IMG/VR virus record: IMGVR_UViG_3300025769_000078
DNA length: 64,000 bases
Source of the DNA: an uncultured virus (IMG/VR IMGVR_UViG_3300025769_000078)
Lineage: Duplodnaviria; Heunggongvirae; Uroviricota; Caudoviricetes
Direction: 5' to 3' (one strand)
The translations under genes were made by a program, and so were the position numbers. How positions within the stretch are numbered: position 1 is the stretch's first letter; each line of letters starts with the position of its first letter. Below are positions 3,312 through 38,158 of this stretch, piece by piece. The notes under the pieces were generated by a model. It was not told the origin of the DNA. It made no database searches and worked only from the letters and a program-made list of their open reading frames with translations.

Positions 3312-4214
3312 ATGTCTGACGCTTTTGGCTATGCATTCTCTGTCCTTAAAGCCAACCAAGCGCAGCAAGTTGTAGACCCGTATGGTCATAATGTAAAGAC
3401 TATTCACCCCGCTATCGCAGGGATGATGCAGCGTCGTGGAACATTCCAACCTGAAGGTCAAAGAATGCATAATCCAAGAAGACCACCAAATTCACACATA
3501 TACATTGACCCAGTAGAACCACCTGAAGGTTTCCTACAAGGTGGATGGAAGTCAAGCCAGCGCCCTCAGTCTGATTTAACAATGAATGACTACTTTCCTC
3601 ATGAGTTAGATGCGGGATATGCAACTCCTGAAGAACAGGCAGCAGCGCTTGAAGATATTTTCTATCATAGAGAGCCAAGATTCAAGCCAACAGTTCCCGG
3701 TTATGCCCCTGACCCTCATGGTTCGGCATTCGCTAAAGCCATTCAGCCTTCACAACAAGAAGACCCAAACATGCCTAAAGGACGGCGACATCACGCAAAC
3801 TTAGAGCGTCAGAAAGATATTCACACTGGTTTTCCTTTTGGAATGATACGAGGCCCAATGCGAATGACACGGAGATTTGACCCTCCTTCTGTGCCAGTGC
3901 CAAAGGGACATTACCCTCTACCACCGCCTACACCTATGCCTCATCGCCCTATGAATGTCGGCCCAATTTCAACGAGTCGAACCCTACCTCCAAACCCTGC
4001 TCAAATGCCTCCCGGTGCTGATGCTCCGAGTAGGCGAGAAGCGGGAGGCGGCGCACCAGTTGCTCCAGCACCACCACGACCTGTGAGCCAAGAGAATCCG
4101 TTTGTGCATGACGTGCGCCCTGACATGCCATTATCTGATGACCAAATAGAAATGCTTGCTGACGAGTTCCGCATCCCAATCGAAAAAGCATGGAGTCACT
4201 TGCGAAACAGGTGA
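3312..4214 (+). CDS. Pro-rich hypothetical protein with an N-terminal AFxxAFxxLK tag
   Basis: Long ORF beginning MSDAFGYAFSVLKA (alternative start 3300). Confidence 0.75.
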   Translation: MSDAFGYAFSVLKANQAQQVVDPYGHNVKTIHPAIAGMMQRRGTFQPEGQRMHNPRRPPNSHIYIDPVEPPEGFLQGGWKSSQRPQSDLTMNDYFPHELDAGYATPEEQAAALEDIFYHREPRFKPTVPGYAPDPHGSAFAKAIQPSQQEDPNMPKGRRHHANLERQKDIHTGFPFGMIRGPMRMTRRFDPPSVPVPKGHYPLPPPTPMPHRPMNVGPISTSRTLPPNPAQMPPGADAPSRREAGGGAPVAPAPPRPVSQENPFVHDVRPDMPLSDDQIEMLADEFRIPIEKAWSHLRNR

Positions 4215-4220
4215 TGAAAT

Positions 4221-6836
4221 GTGTCAGCCTTTAACATCGCTTACAATCTGTTGAAAGCAAAGACTCCTTTTAGACAAAAAGCGTCCGGGCAAGACAGCCA
4301 CAGAACCCCAACCTCAGATGAGTTGGCTCAATATGCCTCTCTGTGGTCTTTTCCGACAGATGATGGAAAGCCTGATGAGCCAGCAGAAGACGTGCCTCTA
4401 AAACAAAAATTGCAGGGCATGGACACTTTTATTGACGATGAAACCTCTTCTGAAAAAGCATCGAGGATGCGTCGGAATTTAATGCCAGCAGAAGACGTGC
4501 CTCTAAAAGAAGGGAGAGACGAGCCAATTCGCACAGACAGCGGTGCGTATCGTCATGTAGAAGTTTATCCCAACAGAGCGATAAAATTTGCACAAGACAG
4601 GAGCAGGGGTGGTAGGGCTGCTCCTAAGTCCGACATAGCCATATCGCACGCACTTGCATCGCTTGGTTACCCTATCGTGCCTGAATACCCAATGGCACAT
4701 GACAGAGAGTGGGGTTTAGGGGAAGTATATCCATTAGAGCAAAAAACAATCGACTTGGACATGCGACCATCAATGAAAGACGCTTATGTGGCTCTGTTAA
4801 ACGACCCTGAAACGGCACGTCGTCTTAACCTCTCTCCTAAAGTGCCACGCACGTCACTCTTAGAGTATCTTGCTCGACCTCACAGGACATACATGGGTGA
4901 TGAAGAGACACCAGCAATCAATGCAGAACAATCAGAAGCATTAAGAGAAAAATTAACCGAGTTGCGAGACAAACGTGGTCGAGATGTTCAAGCGATGCAT
5001 GGTGAGTTTGAAGATTACCTACCAAGTGCATTGGATATAACTGATTTGCACGATTACAACATAGGTCGTGACCCTGATGACCCATCAAAATTTGTTACCT
5101 TTGACCCGATGTATGGTAGGTCACGACGAATGCAAAGTATAGGTCGAATGCTTCGGGACGCTACCTCAATAAATGATATTGGTATTGGCAACGAAGCCGC
5201 ATCACAATACGCCCCTGCATACAGAGACTTCTACCGAGCAAAGCATATGAATCCAATGCAGTTTGATAACTTTACTCAACTCTATAGAGACACGGACATA
5301 TTTGAGCCGTGGGAAAAACAGGCTGAAGAAACAATACATAATCCTAATTTTTACCCTGAAGATATGGTCAGCCAAGACTCATATAACCGACAAAGAGAGC
5401 AAAATAGAAGATTGCAAGCAAATGATGACGCTCGATACAAAGAAACAGGTGACTTCTTGAACTTCATCAACGTCCCTGATGAGCAAAGACGGTTGTTTGA
5501 ATACGACACAGGGTCACACGGCAGACTATATCGAAACATGCTTGAGGGTTTACAAAGTAAAAATTTGAAACCGTATGTTCCACCACAGCAGTTCCGAGAC
5601 TTCAGAGAAGGTGGCCCAAGCCCAGTTCAAAAAAGTGAAGATACACCCTCTTCGATGCCATACAAATACGATGATGATGTCAGACCTTTGGTTTGGGATG
5701 GTAGAAAATTTGTCTATAGAGCCAAGGACGTAGACCCAATGGGTGAAGAAAATCAAGGTTTTGAAACTGGTGGGGCAAACAGATTTGCGCTTGTTGGTCA
5801 CGACTCTGTTGAAAAATATCCTCATGGTTGGGGTAGAGCCGAAAACAAGAAAGACCTCGCTATCTTTAACGCACTTGCATCGCTTGGTTATCCCATTGTT
5901 CCTGAACAACCTATGGCTTTTGACAAAAGCCCTCGATTCTTTCCAACTCGACAAGACAAAACAAAGACGGACATGATTGACAATTATGCACAACATATTT
6001 CACATGCTAAAGAAAATTTTGAAGAAGAGCATGGAGAAGAGATGCCTCAAGCATTACAATCACATTACAAACGACAAAACAAAAATCTTCGTGGAGACTT
6101 AGATGATTTAAGGCGAGTGTTTGAAAGGAGTCCATTAACACATACGCTCGATATAGGTGACATAAAATTTGGTAACGTAGGATATGACGATAAGGGTAAC
6201 ATGGTTACATTTGACCCATATCTTGGTTCAACATCAAGATTACCTGAATTTGGTCAAATGTTAGACCACATGGCTGCGCCCATACAAGGCACTTCAGGCA
6301 CACATTATCCAAATCGTGACAGACCTGATTACAGGGGAACTGCCCCCGAAAAAAGAGCAGCAGACCAAGCGTTTCTCTATCAAGGATTCCAAAGAGTGCC
6401 TCAAATGCAAAAAGACTCGTTTCGACAACTTTACCATGACCAAGAGCAATTTTCACCGTGGCAAGCCGCTGAACAAAAATTGTTTTCAGACCCTGAAGCG
6501 TTTGGAGAGCACGCCCCAACAAAAAGACAAAGAGAGCAAATGATGGGAACGATAGACAGAGACGATGCTGCATACAAACAAACAGGTCGTGCTATTGACT
6601 TCTTGACCACACCGCCTGAACAAAAACGTCTGTTTGAGTTTGGAAACAACGCACATGCACAAAGATACCGTAACATGCTAAACTCGTTACAAAGTGAAAT
6701 AAGACATCCAAACAGTACAACTAATTGGTTACCCCCTGTAGGAGAAACTGATTTTCCTACACCGCAAGAACTTCCCAACGTAGATGAACTTCTTGATAAA
6801 TTCAGAGAACTTCCACGCAACCAATACACTCCCTAA
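4221..6836 (+). CDS. Tagged protein with two tandem protein-kinase-like domains
   Basis: SGAYR..IKF..DLHDYN..FDP and GGANR..EKY..DIKFGN..FDP; duplicated ALASLGYPIVPE and LFE(Y/F)...YRNML..LQS. Confidence 0.7.
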   Translation: MSAFNIAYNLLKAKTPFRQKASGQDSHRTPTSDELAQYASLWSFPTDDGKPDEPAEDVPLKQKLQGMDTFIDDETSSEKASRMRRNLMPAEDVPLKEGRDEPIRTDSGAYRHVEVYPNRAIKFAQDRSRGGRAAPKSDIAISHALASLGYPIVPEYPMAHDREWGLGEVYPLEQKTIDLDMRPSMKDAYVALLNDPETARRLNLSPKVPRTSLLEYLARPHRTYMGDEETPAINAEQSEALREKLTELRDKRGRDVQAMHGEFEDYLPSALDITDLHDYNIGRDPDDPSKFVTFDPMYGRSRRMQSIGRMLRDATSINDIGIGNEAASQYAPAYRDFYRAKHMNPMQFDNFTQLYRDTDIFEPWEKQAEETIHNPNFYPEDMVSQDSYNRQREQNRRLQANDDARYKETGDFLNFINVPDEQRRLFEYDTGSHGRLYRNMLEGLQSKNLKPYVPPQQFRDFREGGPSPVQKSEDTPSSMPYKYDDDVRPLVWDGRKFVYRAKDVDPMGEENQGFETGGANRFALVGHDSVEKYPHGWGRAENKKDLAIFNALASLGYPIVPEQPMAFDKSPRFFPTRQDKTKTDMIDNYAQHISHAKENFEEEHGEEMPQALQSHYKRQNKNLRGDLDDLRRVFERSPLTHTLDIGDIKFGNVGYDDKGNMVTFDPYLGSTSRLPEFGQMLDHMAAPIQGTSGTHYPNRDRPDYRGTAPEKRAADQAFLYQGFQRVPQMQKDSFRQLYHDQEQFSPWQAAEQKLFSDPEAFGEHAPTKRQREQMMGTIDRDDAAYKQTGRAIDFLTTPPEQKRLFEFGNNAHAQRYRNMLNSLQSEIRHPNSTTNWLPPVGETDFPTPQELPNVDELLDKFRELPRNQYTP

Positions 6837-6874
6837 CCGCTATTCTTTTATCAAGCAACACCGTGGGAAGACTG

Positions 6875-7597
6875 ATGACCGCCTTTTCCGATGCGTTTTT
6901 TATTCTTAAAAATGAGCACCGTTTCGACCTACTCATAGACTCAGTGCTACGAAAAGGCAAGGCTGAGGATGCCATTGCTCTCCAGCAAATGCGTCAATTT
7001 GTTTTGGACAACGAAAACTCACCTGACCCAGCCATGCGCCAAGCGGCTGAAGACATGTATCAAAAACTCACACAGATGATGAGCCAGCGAAGAGGCGTTA
7101 CCCCAACACCAAAGCCCGAAGGCCCAGTTGGTGAAGGCGCTGAGATGACCGAGATGTCGCAACCTGCTATGCCTCCACAGCACCCAATGAAGAAGGCTTG
7201 GGATTCGTTAAGAAAAAATGTAGTCGGAATGGATTATAGCCAAAAAATACCTACTGAATACAATATGCCCCCAGCCGTAGCATCAATGGCACAACGCCCT
7301 CAAGTTCCTGAAACAACGCAACATACCACTACCTACCCAGCGCAAGGTTTGTTTAGCCGTTTTAGAGGGCCACAGTCTCAAACCTACAATCGAAGAACTG
7401 GTAATACGGTTTTAGGTGGGCCTACAACAATGGATGTTCAAGAAAATGCTCCGAATCCAATGGGGGAGCAATTTGGAGCAGGGCCAGCACCGGGCGCTCA
7501 GGTAGAGCGTATGCCTCATCCCGACCCTTATTCAGCATTTACTGGAATATCCACGCCATATACCCTTGCAAATGAGGAGAAAGGTTATCAATTTTGA
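6875..7597 (+). CDS. Hypothetical protein with two copies of the AW/AF-LK tag
   Basis: MTAFSDAFFILKN at the start and internal PMKKAWDSLRK. Confidence 0.75.
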   Translation: MTAFSDAFFILKNEHRFDLLIDSVLRKGKAEDAIALQQMRQFVLDNENSPDPAMRQAAEDMYQKLTQMMSQRRGVTPTPKPEGPVGEGAEMTEMSQPAMPPQHPMKKAWDSLRKNVVGMDYSQKIPTEYNMPPAVASMAQRPQVPETTQHTTTYPAQGLFSRFRGPQSQTYNRRTGNTVLGGPTTMDVQENAPNPMGEQFGAGPAPGAQVERMPHPDPYSAFTGISTPYTLANEEKGYQF

Positions 7598-7649
7598 TGT
7601 CGCCTCTTAAGCGATATGCTTTTGTTAATGGAGAGCGTGGCTTCGCTTA

Positions 7650-9212
7650 ATGCCGAGTGAAAACTACGACTTTGTGCCGTGGGATTCGCCCGACGATATT
7701 GAAAAATTTTTTGCTCCATTATTGACTGGAGCAAAGGCGCTGGGTGGTAAAGTGCTTAGCGCAGGGGCTAAACTTAACACAAAGCGTTTGGCGCTTAGAA
7801 ACAAGATTGGAGAAAAAATTGTCCCAGCCGCTAAGAATTTAATGACTGGGAAAAAAGAAGGGCCACTTGCCTCAAGCCCAGCAAGTGAGGCTGTTGAGTC
7901 GATGCCTTCAGCACCAGCGCCTGAAATGCCTGAGCCTGAGATGCCTGAAACTCCATCAGCGCCTGAGCCAACACAAGAAGCCAGTGGGTTCAATCCAAAG
8001 AAGAAAAAGAATCAAGCGATGCAGTTTGCATCGCAGTCGTTGGCAAACAGCCAACAACGCAAGCAAGCACAGGAACAGCGTGCCATTGAAATGGCTCGTC
8101 GTGGTTCAGAAGTTGGAAAAGCAGCGCCAATGGATATGGCTTGGCGACTTTTGAAAACTCGTAGCGAAAGCGAAGAAGACAGGATTAAGGGTAAATTTGA
8201 GAGGCTTCAAAGAAAAATTGAAAATAGAGACAAAGATGCTATGGAGCAATTAGAAACAAGCCCTGCAAAATCCTATCGAACAGACGCACCACCACAATCT
8301 ACACTTCCAATGCACCTACCGCTTAATCGTAATCTTCGTGATGCTATACGGAACAGAGATGATATGAAAATTGATAACCGTAATCATACGTTTACAAGAC
8401 TCATACCTGAAGGCCAAGCAAAAAGAGATTTTAGGGAAGGTTACGAAAAACGTATGCGCCTCTCAGAAGGAGCGCCAACAAAAGTCCGAGTTTTGAGCAC
8501 AGGTAATGATGGCCGTAGATTTGAATTAGTAGACGATGAAGGTAAAAGGTATGCAAAGGTAAGTGGACATAATCTTCATGACAAAGATACTCGGAGAATC
8601 CCTGACGTAACAAACACCATAGTTGGGTTAAACGCACATACTCCTGAAGAACATAGGCGAAGGGGTTACTACACAAATTTACTCGATACCATTCTTCAAA
8701 ACAAAATAGGCATTCAATCTGATAGTAGAAACGCACATATGTCTCAGCCGTTTCATGAAAAATTTCAACAACGACTACCAACAAACATAATGGCGGGTGG
8801 AGCAGAGTATGAAAAGTCAAAAACAATCCAAGAATCAAGAGATAGAACGAGTAACATGTATCGTTACGGCTTTGACCCTGAGTTTGAACAACAGGCTTTG
8901 GAAAATATCGACACAACAGGCTGGGGTGACTTGAAACCAATGTTTGGTAGTCAATACCCAATGTTTGGAACTGTAGATAAACCAACATCCTCACTACTAA
9001 GCACTGATGTTTCTCCTCGCTCGTCCATACAAGTTCAAGATAACACTGACCCTACAAGTCCCAGTGTTCGCTTTTACAGACAATCACAACTCACTGAGCC
9101 AAGATTTGACCCGAATTCTAAGAGCCTCAAAGATTTACAAGAAGAATCTCGTAAGAAGTTAGACGATGAATTTCAAATGAGTCGTGCAGAACTTGAAAGG
9201 ATGTTTGGGTGA
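7650..9212 (+). CDS. Modular protein: low-complexity N-terminus, internal tag, C-terminal GNAT acetyltransferase-like domain
   Basis: PMDMAWRLLK, then TPEEHRRRGYYTNLL (GNAT motif A-like) and SRNAHMSQPFHEKF; paralog of 9955-10986. Confidence 0.65.
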   Translation: MPSENYDFVPWDSPDDIEKFFAPLLTGAKALGGKVLSAGAKLNTKRLALRNKIGEKIVPAAKNLMTGKKEGPLASSPASEAVESMPSAPAPEMPEPEMPETPSAPEPTQEASGFNPKKKKNQAMQFASQSLANSQQRKQAQEQRAIEMARRGSEVGKAAPMDMAWRLLKTRSESEEDRIKGKFERLQRKIENRDKDAMEQLETSPAKSYRTDAPPQSTLPMHLPLNRNLRDAIRNRDDMKIDNRNHTFTRLIPEGQAKRDFREGYEKRMRLSEGAPTKVRVLSTGNDGRRFELVDDEGKRYAKVSGHNLHDKDTRRIPDVTNTIVGLNAHTPEEHRRRGYYTNLLDTILQNKIGIQSDSRNAHMSQPFHEKFQQRLPTNIMAGGAEYEKSKTIQESRDRTSNMYRYGFDPEFEQQALENIDTTGWGDLKPMFGSQYPMFGTVDKPTSSLLSTDVSPRSSIQVQDNTDPTSPSVRFYRQSQLTEPRFDPNSKSLKDLQEESRKKLDDEFQMSRAELERMFG

Positions 9213-9216
9213 TACC

Positions 9217-9786
9217 ATGATGAGTGACTTGTTTTGGAAAAACGTCTTTGATGCGCCTGTTGAGATGAAAAGCGTTAGGTCAGGCTCTGATATACGAGAA
9301 AACTGCACGCTTTGTCCAAATCCTAATGCTGTTATTTCAATTCGATACGCTAACCCAACTTTAACAAAAGACTACACACACCATATGTGCATAGACTGCG
9401 CCCAACAATATGATGTGCATGGTATGGTGCATCCATCGGCACTTGGAGATGATGATGTAAAATTAGCAAGCGAACTTACACCTTTCGACATAGCATGGGA
9501 CACTCTTGAAAAGAAACTGTGTCCTGAAGGTAAAGCCGCTGCTAAACGCAAATTCAAAGTTTACCCATCAGCATACGCCAACGGATGGGCGGTGCAATAC
9601 TGCAAGGGTAAGTTCCGTAAGAAAAAGGGTAAGGTGAAAAAAGCCGAAGAACTCAAAGTTTGCCAAGACTGTGGTACGCAATTTGAACTTAACGCTTCAA
9701 GATTTACTGGCCCAAATCCAAATGCGGCATTATGCCCGAACTGTGAATATCACAAAGGGTTTAGCGGTTATTATACAGGGGGCTAA
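9217..9786 (+). CDS. Modular protein: Zn finger, tag, basic YPSAYA module, Zn ribbon
   Basis: CxxC..CxxC, PFDIAWDTLEKK, KRKFKVYPSAYANGWAVQYCKGK, CQDC..CPNC; GGTGA RBS before ATG 9217 (track start 9184). Confidence 0.7.
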   Translation: MMSDLFWKNVFDAPVEMKSVRSGSDIRENCTLCPNPNAVISIRYANPTLTKDYTHHMCIDCAQQYDVHGMVHPSALGDDDVKLASELTPFDIAWDTLEKKLCPEGKAAAKRKFKVYPSAYANGWAVQYCKGKFRKKKGKVKKAEELKVCQDCGTQFELNASRFTGPNPNAALCPNCEYHKGFSGYYTGG

Positions 9787-9791
9787 AAGAA

Positions 9792-9953
9792 ATGAAACTC
9801 AAAAAGCCTTCATGTTGTTGCGGCGGGACGAAAGATACGCCCTGCGTATGCATGATTGAAGGTAGACAGTGTTCAGCAAAAGCACCAAAGTGTCCTTGTT
9901 ATCGTTTGATGGACAAGCAAAAGAGCATCAAAAAAATGGTAGGTGTGTTTTGA
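9792..9953 (+). CDS. 53-aa Cys-rich peptide (metallothionein/Zn-cluster-like)
   Basis: Translated by hand: MKLKKPSCCCGGTKDTPCVCMIEGRQCSAKAPKCPCYRLMDKQKSIKKMVGVF; fills the gap between its neighbours. Confidence 0.6.
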   Translation: MKLKKPSCCCGGTKDTPCVCMIEGRQCSAKAPKCPCYRLMDKQKSIKKMVGVF

Positions 9954-9954
9954 A

Positions 9955-10986
9955 ATGACAGCCTTTACCACTGCTTGGTCTTTGCTGAAAGGTGACCCCA
10001 TATTTTCAGTAAAAGATATTCGTGATTTACGAGAGCGAATAAAAAGAGAAAAAGATACTGGAGTTTACGATGTAAACAGAGGTGACACCAATCTTGAACG
10101 ATTGATGGGTATTTATCCACTGGGACAATCAAGATTTACTCGTGCAGGTATTTTTGACCCTGATGTTCCACATAATGCGGAAAACACAGATAAAAGGTTT
10201 AGACAAGGTTACAGACAACGAATGGACACATCGCCTCGCCCAACTCCAACAAAGGTTGTTCGCATTCCTGACTTTTACCAAGACGAATATGGACACGGAA
10301 TGGCCTATGAACTTCAAGACGAAAAAGGTAACAGATTGTCTCGTCTTGATGCGACGAAGGTAACTCCTGAACAGAATAAATACAATGAATATATAAAAAA
10401 CGCATTACCAATGTTAATTGGTTTGCATGGGAAAACTCCTAAAGAACACCAGCGAAGAGGTTATTATCAACAACTTCTCAATACAATACTACACGATAAC
10501 ATGAACATTCTTTCAACTTCAAGAAACTCAAACTCGCAGCCGTTTCATAGAAGTTTTCAACGACGTTTACCACCTTCTATAGATTTTGAGCAATTAGACC
10601 ATCCGATAGATTCAGAGAGAGCAAGATACCTCTATCAAGCCAACCCAATAAAACAATTCAAAGAGAGAGAGAAGTATCAAACAGCGGGTTGGGGTGACTT
10701 GCGACCTGACTATGGCGTAGCACCGATATTTGATGAACCTGAAGATGAAAGACTTACAAATATGAAAAGAGATATGGGTCAGGGTTACTCAAAACAGACA
10801 CGACTCTATGACAAACGCTTTTTGCCTGAACATAACCCTGAACACCCAAATCACTTGCCTCATCGTAACTATTATGAAACAAAAGATGGAGTTCCTTATT
10901 CAACGGCTGATGTTCTTGCTGACCCGTATCATTGGGATTATAGCGAACATCCCTATTCACGTTCATTGGGTCATTTATTTGGATGA
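9955..10986 (+). CDS. Tagged GNAT acetyltransferase-like protein
   Basis: Starts MTAFTTAWSLLKG; TPKEHQRRGYYQQLL; SRNSNSQPFHRSF; GWGDLRP shared with the paralog. Confidence 0.65.
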   Translation: MTAFTTAWSLLKGDPIFSVKDIRDLRERIKREKDTGVYDVNRGDTNLERLMGIYPLGQSRFTRAGIFDPDVPHNAENTDKRFRQGYRQRMDTSPRPTPTKVVRIPDFYQDEYGHGMAYELQDEKGNRLSRLDATKVTPEQNKYNEYIKNALPMLIGLHGKTPKEHQRRGYYQQLLNTILHDNMNILSTSRNSNSQPFHRSFQRRLPPSIDFEQLDHPIDSERARYLYQANPIKQFKEREKYQTAGWGDLRPDYGVAPIFDEPEDERLTNMKRDMGQGYSKQTRLYDKRFLPEHNPEHPNHLPHRNYYETKDGVPYSTADVLADPYHWDYSEHPYSRSLGHLFG

Positions 10987-10998
10987 GGAGGTAAAGAG

Positions 10999-11400
10999 AT
11001 GAGTGACCGATGCACATGCCACGACGTTCTCGTTATCAAAGACTTGAACCGATGGTTCAAAGAAAAGTGGGTTGATGTTAGTCGTAAAGACAAAGACGGC
11101 AAGCATCCTCCATGCGGTAGAGGCAAAGCAAAGACATCAAGTAAGGGCTATCCAAAGTGTAGACCCAGTGTAAAGGTCAGTGATAAGACTCCAAAAACTT
11201 CAGGCTCAATGTCTGAAGGACAAAAGCGTGCGGCGACAAAGCGCAAGCGCAGTAAAAAACAAGGCGTAGGTGGCAAGCCTACAATAGTAAAAATGGTTGG
11301 TGTAACAAAATTTGGTCAAATGCAGCAGTGTTACACTTGCGGTAATGTTTTTCCAAATTATAGGATGTTAAACCAACATCAACAACAAATGGGGCATTAA
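10999..11400 (+). CDS. Small basic protein (WFKEKWVD...CGR...YPKCRP module) with a C-terminal C2H2 Zn finger
   Basis: GAGGAGG RBS; module type I recognise from marine phage hypothetical proteins; CYTC..HQQQMGH at the end. Confidence 0.75.
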   Translation: MSDRCTCHDVLVIKDLNRWFKEKWVDVSRKDKDGKHPPCGRGKAKTSSKGYPKCRPSVKVSDKTPKTSGSMSEGQKRAATKRKRSKKQGVGGKPTIVKMVGVTKFGQMQQCYTCGNVFPNYRMLNQHQQQMGH

Positions 11401-11411
11401 AAAAAGGTGAT

Positions 11412-11729
11412 ATGATGAGTGCATTTGATGAAGCATGGGACGTTATTGAAAAAGGAAAAAAGAAGTCGAAGCCGTTTCACGGTTACAATCCAAATCGGCA
11501 TCATAAGAAAGGTGGACTAAACGCTAAAGGGCGTGCCAAGTTCAAGCGTGAAACTGGTGCAAACCTCAAGCCACCTGTAACCACCAAGCCAAGCAAACTC
11601 AAGCCCGGTAGCAAGAGAGCCAAACGTCGTAAGTCATTCTGTGCAAGAATGAGTGGAAGCAAAGGCCCAACAAGCAAGGGTGGTAAACTCACACCAAAAG
11701 GTGCAGCACTGAAAAGATGGAATTGTTGA
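11412..11729 (+). CDS. Tagged small basic protein (GGLNAKGR...RRKSFCARM...RWNC module)
   Basis: MSAFDEAWDVIEKG tag; basic module I recognise from marine T4-like phage hypothetical proteins. Confidence 0.8.
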   Translation: MMSAFDEAWDVIEKGKKKSKPFHGYNPNRHHKKGGLNAKGRAKFKRETGANLKPPVTTKPSKLKPGSKRAKRRKSFCARMSGSKGPTSKGGKLTPKGAALKRWNC

Positions 11730-11730
11730 T

Positions 11731-12765
11731 ATGAGTCAGTTTTTCAATGAGGCATGGCGCTTGCTTAAAGCGATACCATCGGGGCAGTCTTTTCGTGGAG
11801 ACATAATGCAACACTTGCCTACTGAATTGAATTACGATGCTTTGCAATCACATTTAGAGCAGAATCCTAATTCTACGCTTGGCGATTTAATGACACCCTA
11901 TCTTACTGGTGAATTTACTAAACCAACGTCTGAAGTATCTACTAATCCTCGTTCTTATCAAGACGAAAATTTACCTTTCCCCTTGAATGAAAACGAAGCG
12001 GCAAGTTTTGTAGGTAATTTTTCCAATCAAGAAGGAGAATATACAGTTCCTCAATCTTATTATCAAAATAATAGAAGTAATGAAGACATTCAAAATCAAA
12101 AAATTCTTTCAAACATGATGAGAGTTTTACATGGTAGACTCAGACACGGCCAAACAGGTTTTGAAATGTCTCCGCCGAGAACAGGAGGAAAAGGAGCAAA
12201 ACTACCAAGTGGTAAAATGGCAAGACATAACATGAGACTTCAAGATTATATGAACACTCCAATATCTGTTCGACAAGCCGAGATGACACCGTTAGCACAG
12301 AATCAACAAATGATAACTACAGGCGAACCAATGAACTTAGGCGTTGGTGTGATTCGTAAAGAGCGAAAGTCGCCTGAAGCCAAGCGACATAAGTTGGAGT
12401 ATGACAAACAATACGAAGCATCTCCTGAACGAGTCAAGTATCGAGAAGAGTTAAACAGAGAACGACGTAGACGTGGGATGTATGGTGACCACTCGCACCG
12501 AGACATATCACACACCGAAGGTGGTAAATTGACAGTAGAAGATGAGCACGACAACCGAGCACGACATTTCAAGGACAAAGGGACAAAGCGCCCTCTAACA
12601 AAGGGTATCAGAGGCGACCTTGAGTTGCTACGAAATCTGATGAATGGCCCAATGGACGAGCAAGATAAGAAGATTGCACAGGCTCTCCTTACCTCATTAG
12701 ATGACTTCAAACAAGAGCAGGGTGGCGAAGACAGAAAAGAGTTGATGCACCCTTACCCATTCTAA
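11731..12765 (+). CDS. Tagged modular protein with an HNH-like basic module
   Basis: MSQFFNEAWRLLKA; YDKQY..KYREELNRERRRRG..DISH..DNRARH resembles a minimal HNH domain. Confidence 0.6.
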   Translation: MSQFFNEAWRLLKAIPSGQSFRGDIMQHLPTELNYDALQSHLEQNPNSTLGDLMTPYLTGEFTKPTSEVSTNPRSYQDENLPFPLNENEAASFVGNFSNQEGEYTVPQSYYQNNRSNEDIQNQKILSNMMRVLHGRLRHGQTGFEMSPPRTGGKGAKLPSGKMARHNMRLQDYMNTPISVRQAEMTPLAQNQQMITTGEPMNLGVGVIRKERKSPEAKRHKLEYDKQYEASPERVKYREELNRERRRRGMYGDHSHRDISHTEGGKLTVEDEHDNRARHFKDKGTKRPLTKGIRGDLELLRNLMNGPMDEQDKKIAQALLTSLDDFKQEQGGEDRKELMHPYPF

Positions 12766-12853
12766 GTTGTCCGACTTGTCTAATGTCTAATATAGACAAA
12801 TAATATATTCTTGTAAAATGTATAAACAATACAACGGACAACTCGGACAACAC
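12766..12853. repeat. Intergenic quasi-palindromic element, copy B
   Basis: Begins GTTGTCCGACTTGTC and ends GACAACTCGGACAAC (15-bp inverted repeat, 1 mismatch) around an AT-rich core; homologous to 1411-1506. Confidence 0.85.
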
Positions 12854-12867
12854 ACCCAGTAACCTTT

Positions 12868-13485: not shown

Positions 13486-13494
13486 GGCGTATGC

Positions 13495-13752
13495 ATGGGT
13501 CGTATCTTTCGCACTCCTTCTGATGATGCTACTGAAAGCACGCTTCGTGCTATTCACATAGCCAATACAGTAGATACAACCTACGAAAGAGCGTGGGGTT
13601 GGGTAAAAACCGTTCTCGCTTCATTCATTACAGCAATTGTTGTCAGCGGTATCGAGTTTCACAATACAGAATTTAGCGTTTATGAGAACACCGTTGAATG
13701 GACTGTTGATAAGTTGGAACGGCTTGTCAATTGGCTCATGTGGTGGGACTGA
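13495..13752 (+). CDS. Small single-TM membrane protein
   Basis: Hydrophobic VLASFITAIVVSGI; GAGG RBS; stop overlaps the GTPase start. Confidence 0.7.
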   Translation: MGRIFRTPSDDATESTLRAIHIANTVDTTYERAWGWVKTVLASFITAIVVSGIEFHNTEFSVYENTVEWTVDKLERLVNWLMWWD

Positions 13753-14474: not shown

Positions 14475-14529
14475 CCCAAAAAATGACCCCATAGGTAGCC
14501 TTTTCAATAACAATGGTTTCGGTGTAATT

Positions 14530-14727
14530 ATGACAGGCAAGAACTCTTCAACAACACTCGTATCTACTGGTGGCGGTAGTCGTAGTCTTAGAACCACTGT
14601 TCCGATGTGGATTGTTGAGCATTTTGGCTTGACCGCTGGTGACAGCGTAGATTGGAAGTTTGTTGTTCAAGAGGGACACATTGTTGTAGTCATGACTCCT
14701 ACGACTGAGCAGGTCGTGATAGCGTGA
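14530..14727 (+). CDS. AbrB/MazE/SpoVT-type DNA-binding protein
   Basis: SLRTTVPMWIVEHFGLTAGDSVDW matches the swapped-hairpin signature. Confidence 0.8.
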   Translation: MTGKNSSTTLVSTGGGSRSLRTTVPMWIVEHFGLTAGDSVDWKFVVQEGHIVVVMTPTTEQVVIA

Positions 14728-15656
14728 TGTCATGGAATAGACCTCAACAGAATCTAACTGAAGCCGAACTTGCTATACTCGCCGCACAAGGTAACAATCA
14801 ACTTACTCAGGCGGCTCTTCAAGAGATGTTGATGGCTCAACAAGGTATGCAAGAGGTTGCCGCTGCTCAAAACATTGAAGTTCCCAAAGTCAATTTTTAT
14901 CCATCACGTCATGCTGACCCAAAGAAGGCTCGTCGTAAAGACATCAAGCAAGCATACAAACTTCTCCAACCAGCAAAGCGTTCTTGGATAAACCCGTTTC
15001 GATGGGCGTTAGGTCGAAAGTATCGTTACAACAAAGATACAGGAACGTGCGTTGTCGATGGGTGCAACTGTGCAAATTTGATTCAACATGATAATCTCTA
15101 CATGAAAATCAGCGATGAAGAAACAGGTCGCTCTCTATGGGAGATGTATTGGCAAAACCCAGTAACAGGGCAACCTGAAGCATTTATTGCTCAGGACAGA
15201 GTTACCAGTGGTAAGAAAATGCGTGGCACATACTGTCCTGAACATATGCATCTTTACCATCTTCTAAACAAGTGGGAGGCCGAAGAGGACAAACAAAACG
15301 AGATGAATCCAAATCGTCTTCGTGATAAAGTGAAAAGAGGTGTGTCAATTGTGACAGTTCCTATTTCATCTGTCAAGAAAAACGACCCTACACCAGCCAT
15401 GCTACAGAAGTATGAACCATTTTTTGCTGAGTTAGAAAGAGATTCAGGTAAAACAAAAGGCATCAATATCCTTCATTATGCGAATCCAGCAACTGGACAG
15501 AATGATGTTACGATGGTGGTTTTTGATTTGCGTATCTTCCAAATGGAGTTGCAACAAATGAACATGCCGACACAAGCGTTTCAAGAGTTGCTTAATGTTG
15601 AAAATGCTAAAATGCAACAGAACCTTGATGGTGGATTAGGCACTGGGGAGGTCTGA
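14724..15656 (+). CDS. Hypothetical protein with possible Zn ligands (CVVDGCNC...YCPEH)
   Basis: 310-aa ORF coupled to the AbrB-like gene. Confidence 0.75.
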   Translation: MMSWNRPQQNLTEAELAILAAQGNNQLTQAALQEMLMAQQGMQEVAAAQNIEVPKVNFYPSRHADPKKARRKDIKQAYKLLQPAKRSWINPFRWALGRKYRYNKDTGTCVVDGCNCANLIQHDNLYMKISDEETGRSLWEMYWQNPVTGQPEAFIAQDRVTSGKKMRGTYCPEHMHLYHLLNKWEAEEDKQNEMNPNRLRDKVKRGVSIVTVPISSVKKNDPTPAMLQKYEPFFAELERDSGKTKGINILHYANPATGQNDVTMVVFDLRIFQMELQQMNMPTQAFQELLNVENAKMQQNLDGGLGTGEV

Positions 15657-15660
15657 TACG

Positions 15661-16323
15661 ATGTTCAACTTTGGTAATCAACAACCTCAGCAAAGCGGAT
15701 TTAACCTGTCTCAAACAGGTGGAGGCGGTATTAATCAGATAACCACAGGCACTGGTGCTCAAAACGGTTTTTCTCTTGGTGCTCAACAACAACAGCCAAA
15801 TCCATTCATGAATGGAATGATGGGTAGCATGGGAATGAACCAGCAACAACAAATGATGATGCAAAATGGACAGTTTGCGCCGCCAAGTGAAATGGAACTT
15901 TTGTCGGCTTTGCTACAATCACAAAATCCAATTCATCGTTTTATCAGAGATGGTGGGCTTCAAACACTCATAGAGTTGGTTGCCACTACAACCAGTCTTA
16001 GTTTGCTTACAATACTAAAGAGTGCCTCATTCTCATTGGATGAAGATACTGGTGTTATGAAACTTGACCCTGCTACACTACCATCTGATTTACAAACACT
16101 CAGCGTTGAAAACGTCAGCATGATTCTCAACAACATGACGGCTCAAAGCAATCAAAAATTCCAAGAGGCTGAAATGCAACGTCAGCAAATTATGGCTATG
16201 TCGCAACAGTCGATGATGGGCGGTGCTTTGGCGGCGGCTATGGCTGATGAAGGAACGATGCAAAAAGTGGGTAGCGGTATTGGTAGCGTTGCTCGTGGTC
16301 TTATCGGACTACCAAGAAACTAA
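15661..16323 (+). CDS. Q/M/G-rich protein, possibly membrane-associated
   Basis: Low-complexity N-terminus, hydrophobic LIELVATTTSLSLLTIL, amphipathic C-terminus; GGAGGT RBS. Confidence 0.7.
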   Translation: MFNFGNQQPQQSGFNLSQTGGGGINQITTGTGAQNGFSLGAQQQQPNPFMNGMMGSMGMNQQQQMMMQNGQFAPPSEMELLSALLQSQNPIHRFIRDGGLQTLIELVATTTSLSLLTILKSASFSLDEDTGVMKLDPATLPSDLQTLSVENVSMILNNMTAQSNQKFQEAEMQRQQIMAMSQQSMMGGALAAAMADEGTMQKVGSGIGSVARGLIGLPRN

Positions 16324-16332
16324 GGTGATACA

Positions 16333-16572
16333 ATGCAATCAAGTGATTATGGAATAAAAATAAGTCAGGCGAGCAGTTCGATTTTTGCTCCAAGCCGAAA
16401 CATCATTGTTGAAATGATAATGGTTCAGTTTATCTCTGTGATTATCGCTGGTGTGTCTATTTTAATTTTCAAAGGAGATGAAATGAGTAGCGGAGATGTT
16501 AGTGTTTTCGTTGTAGGTATCTTCGGAGCACTTATTTTCTTAACCACGCTTTACTCCCGAATCACTCGGTAA
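16333..16572 (+). CDS. Small two-TM membrane protein (holin-like topology)
   Basis: Two hydrophobic helices in 79 aa; AGGTGA RBS. Confidence 0.7.
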   Translation: MQSSDYGIKISQASSSIFAPSRNIIVEMIMVQFISVIIAGVSILIFKGDEMSSGDVSVFVVGIFGALIFLTTLYSRITR

Positions 16573-16815
16573 CCACTCTCCTATTGGACATCCAACCGAG
16601 GGTGCAAGGGCTTTAATTTTCATAACGCAACTACAGAGTTTGCAAGTCCCCATTCGTTTTTGCATGTAAGGACAACTGTAGCATTTGTCCAGCCGTTTCA
16701 TGTATTCTGACGTTGAAACTCTACGACCTTGTAGTGCGTCTTTTGAAGCCTTGAGTAAGTCTTTCCCACGTTTCTTGAGAGGTTGTTTCGGAACTCTCTC
16801 GTATGGTGGGAGCAT
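16540..16815 (-). CDS. Small basic Cys-rich Zn-binding protein
   Basis: RLDKCYSCP..TCKLCSCVMKIK..CPIGEW pattern, typical of small viral Zn proteins. Confidence 0.7.
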   Translation of the reverse strand: MLPPYERVPKQPLKKRGKDLLKASKDALQGRRVSTSEYMKRLDKCYSCPYMQKRMGTCKLCSCVMKIKALAPSVGCPIGEWLPSDSGVKRG

Positions 16816-16874
16816 GTCACTACGAAGAGGTTCAGAAGAAAAAGGGTTATGGGTAATGTTGCTTTAAGCGTGTC

Positions 16875-17558
16875 ATGGCGGAGGGTGGTGGTATCACAAA
16901 AAGGTCTTGCCCTTTGTGCCAACATCCGAGTCGTGCTGACTTAGAAAAAGGGCTACTGGATGGTGAAATATCACCAAAGCAACTTGACAAAGATATGGGC
17001 TGGCGACTCAATACAACAGACCGTCACTTTCGTAACCATATGGGTCAATACCACATGGCATCGAATCCTCAGTGCAAGGTATGCGCTCACGTTGAAAGAG
17101 CCGACTTTGAGCGTCGATTCTTTAGTGACGGCGCTGAATCAGAGGCTATTGCTGAAGAACTTGGCATCTCTGAAGCATCGGTATATCATCACATGAAGCA
17201 TCACTTTCAACCGTTAGTTCAAAGAAGCGCCGCTGCTGAGATAACATTAGTCGTAGGAGAAGAGATAAATGCGCTCAGGTCAAACGTCGAATTGCTCAAC
17301 CATAAATTGTCTGAACTGCTCAATGAGGGCAGTGTTCATGAAGATGGCTTCGTCAAAGATGCAGTGTCACTGCACAAAGAAGTCAGAGAGTCAATAAAGG
17401 ACTTGCTGAAGATGAATGAACAATGGAGTCCTACATCTGAGAACAGTCAAGTCAATAACACAATTAACATTCTCAAAGTCGAACTTGGAAAAGAAAGCCC
17501 TGACTCATGGGCGAGAATCCGTGAGTCACTATTGGAACACGCAGGTGATATGAATTGA
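16875..17558 (+). CDS. Tandem Zn-finger/HTH protein with a coiled coil; candidate terminase small subunit
   Basis: Two CxxCxH...HxxxH repeats with HTH-like IAEELGISEASVYHH, then a coiled coil; lies upstream of TerL. Confidence 0.55.
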   Translation: MAEGGGITKRSCPLCQHPSRADLEKGLLDGEISPKQLDKDMGWRLNTTDRHFRNHMGQYHMASNPQCKVCAHVERADFERRFFSDGAESEAIAEELGISEASVYHHMKHHFQPLVQRSAAAEITLVVGEEINALRSNVELLNHKLSELLNEGSVHEDGFVKDAVSLHKEVRESIKDLLKMNEQWSPTSENSQVNNTINILKVELGKESPDSWARIRESLLEHAGDMN

Positions 17559-17956
17559 TGCCAGTTCCAGTTCCTGACTTATTGCAAATGACGCACCCTG
17601 CGTTTACATTCGTAGAGTGTGACCGACCAATTTCTGAAAACGCTGTTCCAGTGTATCTTGATTTTTGCCGTTGTGTCACAAAGCGATTTGAGCACTACGG
17701 CGAGTTGGACGTTACACCGCCTGACTTGTTCAAGTTGCTGGCAAAATCGTTTGAGACAGTGTTTGAAGATGACGACCCTGTGACATTTTTCCCTGCTTAC
17801 GAACTCATTCCTCGTTTGCTTGAAGAGTTTGAGCACACAATTGAGAACATGACACACGCATTCCAAGACAGTCCAAGAGTAGCGTCGTTCTATAGAAAAA
17901 TGGCGCAAAAGTTGCGACAATGTTTTGAACATCATATCGTGGGGGATAATTCATGA
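17555..17956 (+). CDS. Hypothetical protein (133 aa)
   Basis: Overlap-coupled to both neighbours; GGTGA RBS. Confidence 0.7.
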   Translation: MMPVPVPDLLQMTHPAFTFVECDRPISENAVPVYLDFCRCVTKRFEHYGELDVTPPDLFKLLAKSFETVFEDDDPVTFFPAYELIPRLLEEFEHTIENMTHAFQDSPRVASFYRKMAQKLRQCFEHHIVGDNS

Positions 17957-19842
17957 CGGAGGGGATGATGGGTCGAACCTCTGACACGAGGATGTATAAT
18001 CCTCGCTCAGAATCTTCCGAGATGTTCAGGGCGAATCATGAAGATGAGCGCCCACCCAGCGGTGTCGAAGATGCCAAAGACAAGGAAAAGCGCAAGGACA
18101 AGAAGCAAGCCAAGCGTGAACGGGAAGAGAAAGAGGACAACAAAATCCGTCACATCAAAGTCCGTAGACATCATCTCGGCATTGATGATGAAAAGCCTGA
18201 TGAGCCAGTAGAAGAGGAAGAGGAGAAGTTCAAGCCTCGTGGTTCTACTGATAATCCAGCAAATCAAACAATGCCATCAGGTGCTGGTGGTTTCCTTACC
18301 AGTCTCGCTATGGGAGCAAAAGGGCCGGGTGCTGCTGGCGGTCAGATGGTTCAGATGTCTGAGCCTATGGCTAATGCTTGGAGTAATTTGTTGAAGCGTG
18401 ATATGTCAGAAATGACAGATTATGACATAGACCGAGCAAGATTTGCTGGCGATAATCCTGAACTTACAAATGAGCAAAGAAAAAGGGCTATGGATAGAAT
18501 AACTGAATACTATCGTATGAATCACCCTCCCGCATATCTTCTTGAGGACATGTTTGGTGAACAAGTAGCAGATGCTTATGACCAAGTTAGTGACTACGAC
18601 CATTCGGATTATTTTGGAGATACAATAGACCCAAATGAAATGTATCAATATATTTTGGAAAATGGTGGCGAAGAGGCGGCTCAAAACTACATTAACTCCT
18701 ATAAGAATTTTAGAAGTCAGTTTGGTGCTGGCGAAGCCATGCGGGATGAATACCAAAAGTTGAACCCCGGTATTTCAGACATTAAAGAGATGGAAAAAGT
18801 TCAAGACCATTTTAATCAACAAGGTAAGTTGGGAGAAGACATACAGAGCATAATGCCTGATAACGAATCTGTTTTCGATGCATTCCCTTACCCCGAAGGG
18901 TGGTCATTTATCAATCATCTTGCGCCTCCTTTCACACCCACACCTCAAAGTGAACATAATTTTCAAATGAAATATGCAAGCGAACCAATGGACATCGCTT
19001 GGCGACTGCTCAAATCGGACACGATTAAAAAAAAAGAATCGAAGCGTTCCGTAAAGCGACGACGCAAGAAAGAAGGCTACGCTAAATGGCGACCATCTAC
19101 TGGTCAGTTTGAGAAGCCAAAAGGTGGGGGCGACCCACGAAACATCACGTCAAGACGTTCCAAGAACATCAGTCGTAACTTACCAATGGGACGTAAAACT
19201 GGTTTGAATCGTTCTCACCTCTCTGTTGAGTTCTCTCACCGAGGTCTTGCCAGCAAGCAACCTCCATCAAAAGACCCTCAACAATACAGACCCTATCTCG
19301 CTTCGCAAGATGCTCGTAAACTCTTGGGCGGTGTAAGAACAGTATACACACCACACATGCGCCACAGCCAGCGCTCGTATATTGCTGGTGACACAGGTGG
19401 TGGTCGTTTGACCAACACACTCCAATACCCTCGTGTTCCAAGACCACGACTTCGACCAGTTCGTGCGCCAAGCATCGTACCACCACAACTCAAGCGACCA
19501 CACTTAGCACGACCTAAGATGCCAAGTATGATTACAATGAGTGAGGACATTCCTCAACACAGTGACATTCTCAAAGCCAATGCATATCAAGCAGCATTGA
19601 TGCGAATTGCTCTGAAAGAAATTCGTGAATTGATGCGTGAAAAGAAAGACAAGGACAGCAAAAAGAAAGGTAAGGGTGAACCTGACACCGCTGGTGCAGC
19701 GAGCACACTACCAAATTATCCAGCCAACAGTCCGAAGCAAACAAATCGAAATCAAGGTGGCACTGAAGATGTAAACAATGAACCACGAGACTTCGGGCTT
19801 GACCCCGGCGCTCTTGTTGGTAGAGGGAGTGGACGAGTTTGA
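17953..19842 (+). CDS. Modular charged protein with two internal tags; putative internal virion protein
   Basis: EPMANAWSNLLKR and EPMDIAWRLLKS flank an acidic insert; the C-terminal half is very basic. Confidence 0.75.
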   Translation: MTEGMMGRTSDTRMYNPRSESSEMFRANHEDERPPSGVEDAKDKEKRKDKKQAKREREEKEDNKIRHIKVRRHHLGIDDEKPDEPVEEEEEKFKPRGSTDNPANQTMPSGAGGFLTSLAMGAKGPGAAGGQMVQMSEPMANAWSNLLKRDMSEMTDYDIDRARFAGDNPELTNEQRKRAMDRITEYYRMNHPPAYLLEDMFGEQVADAYDQVSDYDHSDYFGDTIDPNEMYQYILENGGEEAAQNYINSYKNFRSQFGAGEAMRDEYQKLNPGISDIKEMEKVQDHFNQQGKLGEDIQSIMPDNESVFDAFPYPEGWSFINHLAPPFTPTPQSEHNFQMKYASEPMDIAWRLLKSDTIKKKESKRSVKRRRKKEGYAKWRPSTGQFEKPKGGGDPRNITSRRSKNISRNLPMGRKTGLNRSHLSVEFSHRGLASKQPPSKDPQQYRPYLASQDARKLLGGVRTVYTPHMRHSQRSYIAGDTGGGRLTNTLQYPRVPRPRLRPVRAPSIVPPQLKRPHLARPKMPSMITMSEDIPQHSDILKANAYQAALMRIALKEIRELMREKKDKDSKKKGKGEPDTAGAASTLPNYPANSPKQTNRNQGGTEDVNNEPRDFGLDPGALVGRGSGRV

Positions 19843-38119: not shown

Positions 38120-38158
38120 GGACTCATACAATAACAACAAAAATAGGAGATGAACAAT

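Follow-up and report, generated by a model that had tools for sequence, protein, structure and literature searches.

A 64-kb stretch of DNA from an uncultured tailed virus (IMG/VR record IMGVR_UViG_3300025769_000078; hereafter the window, meaning all 64,000 nucleotides that were analysed) encodes 11 copies of one short peptide, the tag, spread over nine open reading frames (ORFs) upstream of the packaging and head genes. The sharing of this tag is real and highly non-random. We propose that the tag is a portable, position-independent address label comparable to the capsid-targeting sequence (CTS) of phage T4, and that its Φ-Φ-K end (Φ, hydrophobic residue) would be cut by the S78 head protease of the virus. 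We put the probability of this reading at about 0.45.

Copies, structure and distribution of the tag

An earlier note on this DNA had listed 11 motif copies, and all of them were recovered, in frame, within long ORFs of the plus strand. These copies, followed by two degenerate relatives of the tag, are as follows.

3312..3350, plus strand: tag copy 1, N-terminal class, MSDAFGYAFSVLK, 16.9 bits; starts ORF 3300-4214
4221..4256, plus strand: tag copy 2, N-terminal class, GTG start, SAFNIAYNLLK, 13.5 bits; starts ORF 4221-6836
6875..6910, plus strand: tag copy 3, N-terminal class, MTAFSDAFFILK, 14.3 bits; ORF 6863-7597
7184..7216, plus strand: tag copy 4, internal, PMKKAWDSLRK, 15.4 bits; divides ORF 6863-7597 into two modules
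8127..8156, plus strand: tag copy 5, internal, PMDMAWRLLK, 16.8 bits; ORF 7650-9212, joint between module F4 and a GNAT-like module
9481..9513, plus strand: tag copy 6, internal, PFDIAWDTLEK, 17.5 bits; ORF 9184-9786
9955..9990, plus strand: tag copy 7, N-terminal class, MTAFTTAWSLLK, 18.1 bits; ORF 9943-10986, cargo with predicted GNAT-like fold
11415..11453, plus strand: tag copy 8, N-terminal class, MSAFDEAWDVIEK, 22.3 bits; ORF 11412-11729, DUF6321 cargo
11731..11769, plus strand: tag copy 9, N-terminal class, MSQFFNEAWRLLK, 19.2 bits; ORF 11731-12765
18364..18396, plus strand: tag copy 10, internal, PMANAWSNLLK, 18.9 bits; ORF 17953-19842, joint between F1 and cassette F18
18985..19014, plus strand: tag copy 11, internal, PMDIAWRLLK, 24.1 bits; ORF 17953-19842, joint between cassette F18 and basic module F2
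4173..4211, plus strand: degenerate tag-like C-terminus, IPIEKAWSHLRNR, 2.1 bits only; end of ORF 3300-4214
near 12310, plus strand: half-tag TTGEPMNLGVG; precedes the conserved C-terminal module (phrog_6437) of ORF 11731-12765

The tag begins an ORF in six of the copies and is internal in the other five. The earlier description of the motif as N-terminal or at a module boundary was too narrow, as tags in relatives also end proteins. The regular expression A[WFY]x(1,2)[LIVM][LIVMRE]K matched 14 times on the plus strand versus twice on the minus strand of the 64 kb, and 11 of the 14 plus-strand matches were tags, all of them within 3312-19014. The earlier note had suggested a motif profile built from the copies. 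A local hidden Markov model (HMM) derived from 114 unique regular-expression instances in the window and loci L001-L020 scored all 11 window copies at 13.5-24.1 bits. These matches are partly circular, because the HMM was built partly from them, whereas the minus-strand and shuffle controls are not. No HMM match of at least 8 bits was found on the minus strand of the window and the 20 loci, and 100 residue shuffles of the window's plus-strand frames gave on average 0.01 such matches per shuffle (maximum 1), a frequency far below that of the motif itself. The codons used vary among the 11 copies (Ala is encoded by GCT in six, GCA in four and GCG in one, and Leu by five different codons), and the constraint therefore acts on the peptide. 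An RNA or DNA element as the basis of the tag was ruled out by the same variation.

The features of the tag were defined on 118 unique tags from the window and L001-L020. Tags are 10-13 residues long and fall into two classes, an N-terminal class (54/118) with the pattern M-[ST]-x-[AP]-F-[DEN]-x-A-[WFY]-x-[LVI]-[LI]-K and an internal class (64/118) with the pattern Φ-x-x-[SG]-E-P-M-[DE]-Φ-A-[WYF]-[QSR]-L-L-K. The Ala is invariant across tags and the terminal Lys is the best conserved polar residue, standing at +5 in 48/54 N-terminal and 46/64 internal tags and mostly at +6 in the remainder. Use of the internal Met as an internal start was ruled out by its replacement with F or I in 10/64 internal tags. 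The earlier description of the tag as helical held up, in the form of a predicted amphipathic helix: in the AlphaFold2 (AF2) model of ORF 9943 the tag forms a helix at residues 7-16, with coil between this helix and the fold, and the helical hydrophobic moment exceeds the shuffle mean in 11/11 window copies and is in the top 5% in 6/11. We also considered an 'A-M' variant of the tag that might co-vary with a receptor. No viral contig carrying it was found starting from P0027, and the variant was dropped as not lineage-specific, the 30 stretches with its DNA pattern including contigs with a W-type tag.

Nearly all long ORFs of the window are on the plus strand. Gene identification with Pfam and PHROGs located the packaging and head genes as follows.

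23344..24828, plus strand: large terminase subunit (Pfam/PHROGs); same strand as the tag zone, whose end is ~4 kb upstream
27819-29585, plus strand: portal (Pfam/PHROGs)
36740..38119, plus strand: prohead protease (Peptidase_S78, residues 20-174, E 2.5e-10) with a scaffold-like C-terminal part
38150..39334, plus strand: major capsid protein (Pfam/PHROGs, tblastn)

The tag zone is thus directly upstream of the terminase, portal, S78 protease and capsid genes and co-oriented with them. A tape-measure-like protein was identified in the window by the same means, and the protease that the earlier note had placed at 36740 proved to be a Peptidase_S78 prohead protease. In a tblastn search of a phage collection the capsid protein matched only nine records, eight of them haloarchaeal siphoviruses (HVTV-1, HCTV-1, HCTV-5 and relatives; 33-35% identity) and one a Methanofastidiosa virus. 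HVTV-1 also has the portal and the protease in common with the window. As described in PMC5434244, the magrovirus signature is a capsid protein ~33% similar only to those of haloarchaeal siphoviruses, together with a halovirus-like structural module. Because the match pattern of the window capsid protein equals this signature, we assign the window to an archaeal tailed virus of the magrovirus type. Magroviruses, the tailed viruses of Marine Group II archaea, are characterised by genomes of ~100 kb with replication genes of their own and a chaperonin. Relatives in IMG/VR are 103-107 kb long and 97-100% complete, and a Cpn60/TCP1 chaperonin, a magrovirus hallmark according to the Figure 1D legend of PMC5434244, is encoded in 5/5 near-complete tag-bearing relatives; the chaperonin region lies outside the stretch covered by the window and was seen in these relatives. 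The capsid protein matches, the structural module and the chaperonin of the relatives bear out the earlier premise of an archaeal virus of magrovirus type.

The tag is largely confined to one part of these genomes. In five relatives of 97-100% completeness the tag profile gave 11, 17, 11, 12 and 17 matches at E<=1. Of these, 65/68 were concentrated in a single stretch of ~15 kb, the tag zone, next to the structural gene block on its terminase side. As the profile was built partly from the same genomes, the in-zone matches are partly so by construction, and the informative count is that of the 3/68 matches in the remaining ~85-90 kb of each relative (G005 has two, E 2e-4 and 1.5e-3, and G006 has one, E 0.33). 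Of 1.84 billion representative proteins, 303 matched a 32-position tag profile at E<=1e-3, 55 of them at E<=1e-10. The local profile found two to six tags in each of 149/150 best database proteins, with a median spacing of 167 residues, and single database polyproteins carry up to 6-7 tags. Among the 150 best database polyproteins the tag is at the start in 38, and in 25 it stands at the end with at most 12 residues behind it, some of the latter being truncated gene calls. A true stop right after the tag and the residues GE is present in relatives L010 and L011.

An unusual terminus was seen at 9955-10423 of L009, where a six-tag polyprotein terminates as tag plus eight residues (stop at 9997-9999), and a phrog_6437-like module, which is tag-fused in other genomes, runs on in another frame from 9989 with an ATG. 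Database polyproteins P0024 and P0025 terminate with the same eight residues. Either two genes overlap at this boundary or a frameshift has been conserved.

In term searches, the main texts of the magrovirus genome papers PMC5434244, PMC11706807 and PMC10160649 showed no mention of a shared motif or tag, and those of PMC11706807 and PMC10160649 none of a polyprotein. No virion proteome was found in the magrovirus proteomics literature as judged by title and abstract. Among the matches listed for the CTS and prohead protease literature, the sole archaeal-virus entry was an ICTV profile that has 'prohead protease' and lacks CTS.

Exchange of modules at the tags and nature of the cargo

Cutting the tagged ORFs at their tags gave 174 modules in 55 families. 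ORF 17953 consists of three modules in the window, and its homologues always have the order F1-tag-[0 to 3 variable cassettes]-tag-F2. The ORF 7650 family extends from F4-tag-F5 in the window to F4-tag-F10-tag-F14-tag-F9-tag-F11-tag-F23 in L009. One module family may be a stand-alone N-tagged protein in one genome and an internal cassette in another, and this occurrence of module families both as separate genes and as cassettes suggests that the modules act as separate proteins. Between the window and L001, the flanking blocks of which are 86-94% identical at the DNA level, two differences in tagged sequence were found.

18382..18981, plus strand: cassette of 600 nt (module F18 plus one tag equivalent), absent from L001; both breakpoints inside tag-coding sequence
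9952..11003, plus strand: whole tagged gene (ORF 9943-10986), present in the window and absent from L001

The cargo set thus differs among close relatives, with breakpoints inside tags, as expected from the earlier proposal that cargo varies between strains. Gain and loss of whole modules among relatives takes place at the tags. The peptide itself is kept: 18/18 database homologues of ORF 9943, down to 37% identity, begin M[TN]AF..AWSLLK, and the linker beyond the K is rich in indels. Among these homologues the tag is under stronger constraint than the cargo.

The position of the breakpoints could also be explained if the tag were a passive joint, that is, a neutral helix-linker kept as a homology patch for cassette-shuffling recombination. 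The cassette indel between the window and L001, with its two breakpoints in tag-coding sequence and an overlap of 21 nt, is what such a patch would produce, and cassette order does vary widely among relatives. However, the DNA homology between copies is poor, with codons varying while the peptide is conserved, and a tag on 18/18 homologues of a single-module protein has no shuffling joint to serve. The strict residues (the Ala, the aromatic, Φ-L-K and no Pro after the K) also point to selection on the peptide, and we regard a purely passive role as very improbable.

The gene missing from L001 has a further peculiarity of context. Pfam family DUF5872 is split across ORFs in the window, positions 6-48 being found in the post-tag module of ORF 9184 (9514-9786) and positions 55-114 in the untagged ORF 10999 (10999-11400). 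ORF 9943 separates the two halves in the window, and the two half-bearing ORFs are adjacent in L001.

The earlier note had described the cargos as unrelated to one another and as enzymatic. The first point does not hold throughout, since ORF 9943 is a paralogue of the C-terminal part of ORF 7650 (32% identity). The best case for an enzyme is the cargo of ORF 9943. Its AF2 model, with a mean predicted local distance difference test (pLDDT) score of 73.6, gave 68 Foldseek matches in the PDB at E<=1e-3, the best of them NAA60 and SpeG, and language-model and structure leads were GNAT-like as well. A GNAT-like fold is thus supported for this cargo by modelling.

The second enzyme candidate is ORF 4221, which consists of a tag and two tandem repeats that arose by internal duplication (self-BLAST E 2e-37).

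4257..6833, plus strand: cargo of ORF 4221, two tandem repeats, possibly kinase-like (motif inspection, language-model leads; weak support)

In the repeats a Gly-rich loop and a Lys are invariant and are accompanied by a D..N motif and a DFG-like Asp; the language-model (Atlas) leads were T7 kinase, APH, RIO and YrbL. Together these weakly suggest that the cargo is kinase-like. Modelling of repeat 1 with AF2 gave a poor result (mean pLDDT 53, from an 8-sequence alignment), a PDB-sequence profile search returned only one chance match (E 0.9), and Pfam at E<=10 gave YrbL-PhoP_reg in only 1/8 members (E 0.058).

Most other cargo is of a different kind. The cargo of ORF 11412-11729 is DUF6321 with a net charge of +28, the F2 module of ORF 17953 is very basic (net +35, isoelectric point 10.9), and the basic post-tag module of ORF 9184-9786 matches the N part of DUF5872 / phrog_27331. 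Further window cargos include acidic or Pro-rich low-complexity modules, and several are basic or disordered. In 67 database polyproteins the only Pfam families detected were DUF5872, NUDIX, phage zinc finger and YAcAr/SLOG, with NUDIX and SLOG/YAcAr in 3/67 and no family in 61/67. The description of the cargo as enzymatic consequently stands for a minority only, with the GNAT fold supported and the kinase-like assignment weak. No peptidase family was found in the 11 tag-zone window ORFs or the 67 database polyproteins scanned.

Small basic proteins are also found beside head genes elsewhere. The T7-like pelagiphage HTVC031P (L103, 3822-4216) encodes two tiny, very basic proteins between its scaffold and capsid genes, one of which is an untagged DUF6321 homologue of the ORF 11412 cargo; DUF6321 is present in 62 marine phage records. 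PMC5512222 lists kinases and GNATs with the catalytic domains seen most often in phage polyvalent proteins, and gives ~35% of these proteins as presumably packaged. The GNAT fold, the basic modules and the parallels with polyvalent proteins and HTVC031P indicate that the tag-zone cargo fits packaged proteins.

Candidate cleavage at the tag lysine and competing readings

In the reading that we favour, the magrovirus would attach the tag helix to exchangeable accessory proteins and polyprotein modules encoded upstream of the packaging and head genes. During head assembly this helix would dock the proteins onto an internal component of the prohead, candidates being the scaffold part of the protease-scaffold protein and the inner face of the capsid protein. 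A cut behind the terminal Lys (Φ-Φ-K|x) by the S78 (HK97-type) prohead protease would come next, freeing the polyprotein modules and taking off N-terminal tags. The mature head would hold basic DNA-associated proteins and a few enzymes (GNAT-like and kinase-like, with NUDIX and SLOG in relatives), and these would pass into the host together with the DNA. We infer each of these steps, namely docking, cleavage, virion location and ejection of the tagged proteins, from the patterns described above and below.

The terminal Lys is a suitable target for an enzyme of this type. HK97 is cut at K103/S104 (PMC10275583), and the cut sites of the phage φ12 capsid protein and Ccm are described as having only K/R at P1 in common (PMC8569155). 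Pro right after the tag Lys was found in 2/490 unique contexts versus 36.7 expected (p 5e-14), a figure weakened by the fact that the 490 contexts are not phylogenetically independent. One residue further, at P2', Pro was found 46 times among the 490 contexts, and it follows non-tag ΦΦK sites of the same proteins in 9/151 cases. As HK97-type proteases cut after K/R, and as Pro is excluded after the tag Lys, a cut at this position is plausible and, given head loading, on balance probable.

Candidate sites of similar form are present in the protease and the capsid protein. Behind its variable leader, the protease carries the junction [LIV][LI]K|[GAS] (70 loci; candidate site K14, 36779-36781), and in an alignment of 60 protease sequences K14 and L13 are invariant or nearly so. 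A second candidate, FxILK|[EQ]D, stands in 70/80 loci where the S78 domain ends and a variable charged linker follows (K167, 37238-37240). In the capsid protein, GSELLK|[AS]D is present in 73/80 loci (window candidate SELLK|AD, K37, 38258-38260). HVTV-1 has MSK|AD in the capsid protein and VVSK|AD in the protease at the equivalent places.

The protease-scaffold protein has another conserved element, a C-terminal helix (38066-38095) in which M443, W445, V448, H449 and A452 are invariant in 60 sequences. By eye this helix resembles the tag core (polar-Φ-small-W-x-x-Φ-basic), a likeness that the tag profile does not detect. It could be a capsid-binding element that the tags imitate.

Several observations weigh against a head-loading tag cut by the S78 protease. 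The tag profile scores <=0 bits on the candidate sites of the capsid protein and the protease, and the likeness between them is limited to Φ-L-K followed by E/A-D; E (19%) and A (17%) are common after non-tag ΦΦK sites too, and ΦΦK is itself a common tripeptide, with four in the 459-aa protease as counted by eye. Residues 1-37 of the capsid protein are conserved out to haloviruses (T11, Y18-20 and G32 are invariant in 4 sequences) and the capsid protein of one relative has N-A-D at the candidate site, and the removal of these residues is therefore only putative. The pLDDT of the tag helix in the ORF 9943 model (residues 7-16) is only about 44-51. C-terminal tags with 0-5 residues behind them cannot serve as cleavable leaders, and a sole cut after the K would leave the tag on the C-termini of polyprotein modules and strip it from N-tagged proteins, an asymmetry for which the reading offers no explanation. 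In HVTV-1, despite the shared portal, protease and capsid protein, the first 100 kb are without tags (one chance regular-expression match), and no homologues of the tagged cargo are present. Finally, a chaperonin is encoded in all five tag-bearing genomes, and another receptor is therefore possible.

Such a receptor would make the tag a docking helix for a different hub, independent of the capsid: the viral chaperonin, a viral factory or a host target. The chaperonin version is modelled by analogy on the N-terminus of the T4 capsid protein, which directs proteins to GroEL. The presence of the chaperonin, a magrovirus hallmark (PMC5434244), in 5/5 tag-bearing near-complete genomes would suit this idea, as would the lack of an annotated chaperonin in the first 100 kb of the tag-less HVTV-1 and the statement in PMC10052503 that T4 propeptides recruit chaperonins. 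The co-occurrence of tag and chaperonin nevertheless rests on two lineages only, the chaperonin genes are 35-55 kb away from the tag zone, and many of the cargos are short, basic or disordered, and folding help is unneeded for these. Moreover, we know of no linear chaperonin-targeting motif of this kind. We consider a hub of this sort distinctly unlikely.

The position of the tags within proteins bears on whether any cut takes place. An address label need not be cleaved at all: the helix could dock proteins inside the head, on the capsid wall, a scaffold remnant or the DNA, and stay attached, in which case multi-tag polyproteins would be uncut beads on a string with several anchor points. Tags that occur N-terminally, internally and C-terminally are consistent with this, particularly the C-terminal ones with tails of 0-5 residues, which make no use of a cut, and so is the failure of the tag profile to match the presumed protease sites. 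A precedent is offered by phage P1, in which Dar proteins are described as binding the inner capsid wall and Hdf as unprocessed (PMC12810830). A label that is never cut does not, however, account for the exclusion of Pro just behind the tag Lys and not one residue further, for the terminal Lys being the best conserved polar residue, or for module families that are both separate genes and internal cassettes, which suggests separate proteins. We regard it as unlikely.

Conversely, the tag might be a processing joint only, cut in the cytoplasm by a viral or host protease, with no capsid loading and with products that act in the infected cell. The 64/118 unique tags that are internal, with their conserved Φ-x-x-[SG]-E-P upstream, the 6-7 tags reached in some polyproteins and the exclusion of Pro at P1' are all compatible with such a joint. 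This leaves the 54/118 unique tags at an N-terminus, where a cut only takes off 12 residues, and the tags at the extreme C-terminus, where it would free 0-5 residues. In addition, an amphipathic helix of 10-13 residues far exceeds what a protease needs, and the tagged genes cluster by the head module and not among early genes. Processing as the sole function thus seems quite improbable. Taken over all positions, the N-terminal, internal and C-terminal occurrence of the tag fits a docking label better than a mere leader.

The address-label reading can be extended to a plug-and-play cargo system, in which any module bearing the helix (consensus EPMDΦAWxLLK) would be loaded into the head, released by the HK97-type protease and brought into the Marine Group II host. 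Cassettes would swap between genomes by way of these peptide-coding joints. We rate this extension as only slightly less probable than the address-label reading itself.

Neighbouring genes, significance and relation to known systems

The tag zone is interrupted at 12868-17956 (plus strand) by seven untagged ORFs, which include a helix-turn-helix (HTH) protein and a weak Roc/GTPase-like match (E 0.003, below cut-off) and which are kept in relatives (a block of 86% DNA identity versus L001). Several genes beyond the zone, all on the plus strand, were also recorded. An HMGL-like protein (pyruvate carboxyltransferase / aldolase type; 25711-26565, E 1.2e-31) is encoded between the terminase and portal genes, an odd location for a metabolic-type enzyme. 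Between the portal and protease genes is an ORF of 1,837 residues (31182-36695) in which no tag was found and whose only match, to an ATP-dependent DNA ligase, is weak (E 1.5e-4, below cut-off); the corresponding place in HVTV-1 is taken by large 'head assembly' and 'zeta toxin' proteins. A SAP-domain protein (45439-46029, E 1.4e-9) is encoded amid the tail genes. Downstream of these, an ORF of at least 4,930 residues (49208-64000) runs past the window end; it has no Pfam family at E<=1e-3 and may be a giant fibre or adhesin-like tail protein.

In surface ocean waters, magroviruses belong to the most abundant viruses of archaea. Neither they nor their Marine Group II archaeal hosts have been cultured, and most magrovirus genes are without annotation. 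If the address-label reading is true, the tag labels virion-travelling proteins from sequence alone, and ~15% of each genome would move from 'hypothetical' to 'candidate injected effector or internal head protein'. Strains would each inject a set of their own, made up of kinases, acetyltransferases, nucleotide-processing enzymes and DNA-coating proteins, and tag-bounded cassettes would be a simple way for viruses to diversify this set. For archaeal viruses no packaging address code is known so far; the tag would be the first one, and also the first such code to double as a polyprotein joint. A short loading tag that works at any position and brings its own release site would also be useful for packing foreign proteins in capsids, a use to which the T4 CTS has been put.

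The closest parallel, judged by description, is the T4 CTS. This N-terminal peptide of ~10 aa targets proteins including green fluorescent protein (GFP) to the scaffolding core (PMC9958956, citing Mullaney & Black 1996); it is portable, tied to processing by the prohead protease, and carried by cargo that includes host-modifying and anti-defence proteins (PMC9958956). As with IPII and IPIII of T4, which are non-essential and head-internal, one short peptide of ~10 aa is found on several otherwise different proteins. Unlike the T4 CTS, which is described as N-terminal only, the magrovirus tag also joins polyprotein modules and ends proteins: 6/11 window copies and 54/118 unique tags are N-terminal, with internal or C-terminal positions for all others. 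Glu is the residue after which the gp21 protease of T4 cuts, whereas the presumed cut in the tag would be made after Lys by an S78 protease, and the host is archaeal.

Polyvalent proteins of phages and conjugative elements, as described in PMC5512222 (Iyer et al. 2017), have 2-15 domains, among them conflict-type catalytic domains (kinase, GNAT, ART, NTase, nucleases), and packaging and delivery along with the DNA are predicted for them. The tagged proteins are likewise large and built of shuffled modules, a few of them with candidate conflict-type domains (a GNAT-like fold and, weakly, a kinase-like one; in relatives NUDIX and SLOG), are encoded alongside a portal and terminase packaging system, and have several domains per polypeptide (three modules in ORF 17953 and 6-7 tags in relatives). 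Polyvalent domain fusions often include an embedded zincin-like peptidase (~36%), a feature that is frequent and not obligatory, whereas no peptidase family was found in the 11 tag-zone ORFs or the 67 database polyproteins. No shared inter-domain tag is described in the part of PMC5512222 covered here, whereas the magrovirus helix marks every joint and also heads single-module proteins.

Many head-internal proteins (ejection and inner-body proteins) of the giant phages SPN3US and phiKZ carry N-terminal propeptides that are removed by the prohead protease at a short consensus and are thought to target the prohead core (PMC10052503). These propeptides differ from the tag in being 20-254 residues long and not one shared peptide, and in a cleavage motif that ends in Glu; tag-jointed cassette polyproteins are not described in the part of PMC10052503 covered here. 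The Dar system of phage P1 (DarA, Hdf, DarB, DdrA/B, Ulx) similarly consists of proteins that are internal to the head and leave it with the DNA; the prohead protease takes ~9 kDa off the N-terminus of DarA, and Dar proteins bind the inner capsid surface (PMC12810830). Loading of the Dar proteins is described there as hierarchical, via protein domains (DarA, Hdf) and not a common short tag, with a cargo set that is fixed and not cassette-like.

The presumed P1 residue of the tag is basic, as in the sites of S78 (HK97-type) proteases, of which the window protease is a member. The known S78 substrates are the delta domain of the capsid protein and the protease itself, and tagged accessory substrates are not described in the parts of PMC10275583 and PMC8569155 covered here. 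Compared with the known CTS, the magrovirus tag is best described as a position-independent label that doubles as a polyprotein joint, in an archaeal virus.

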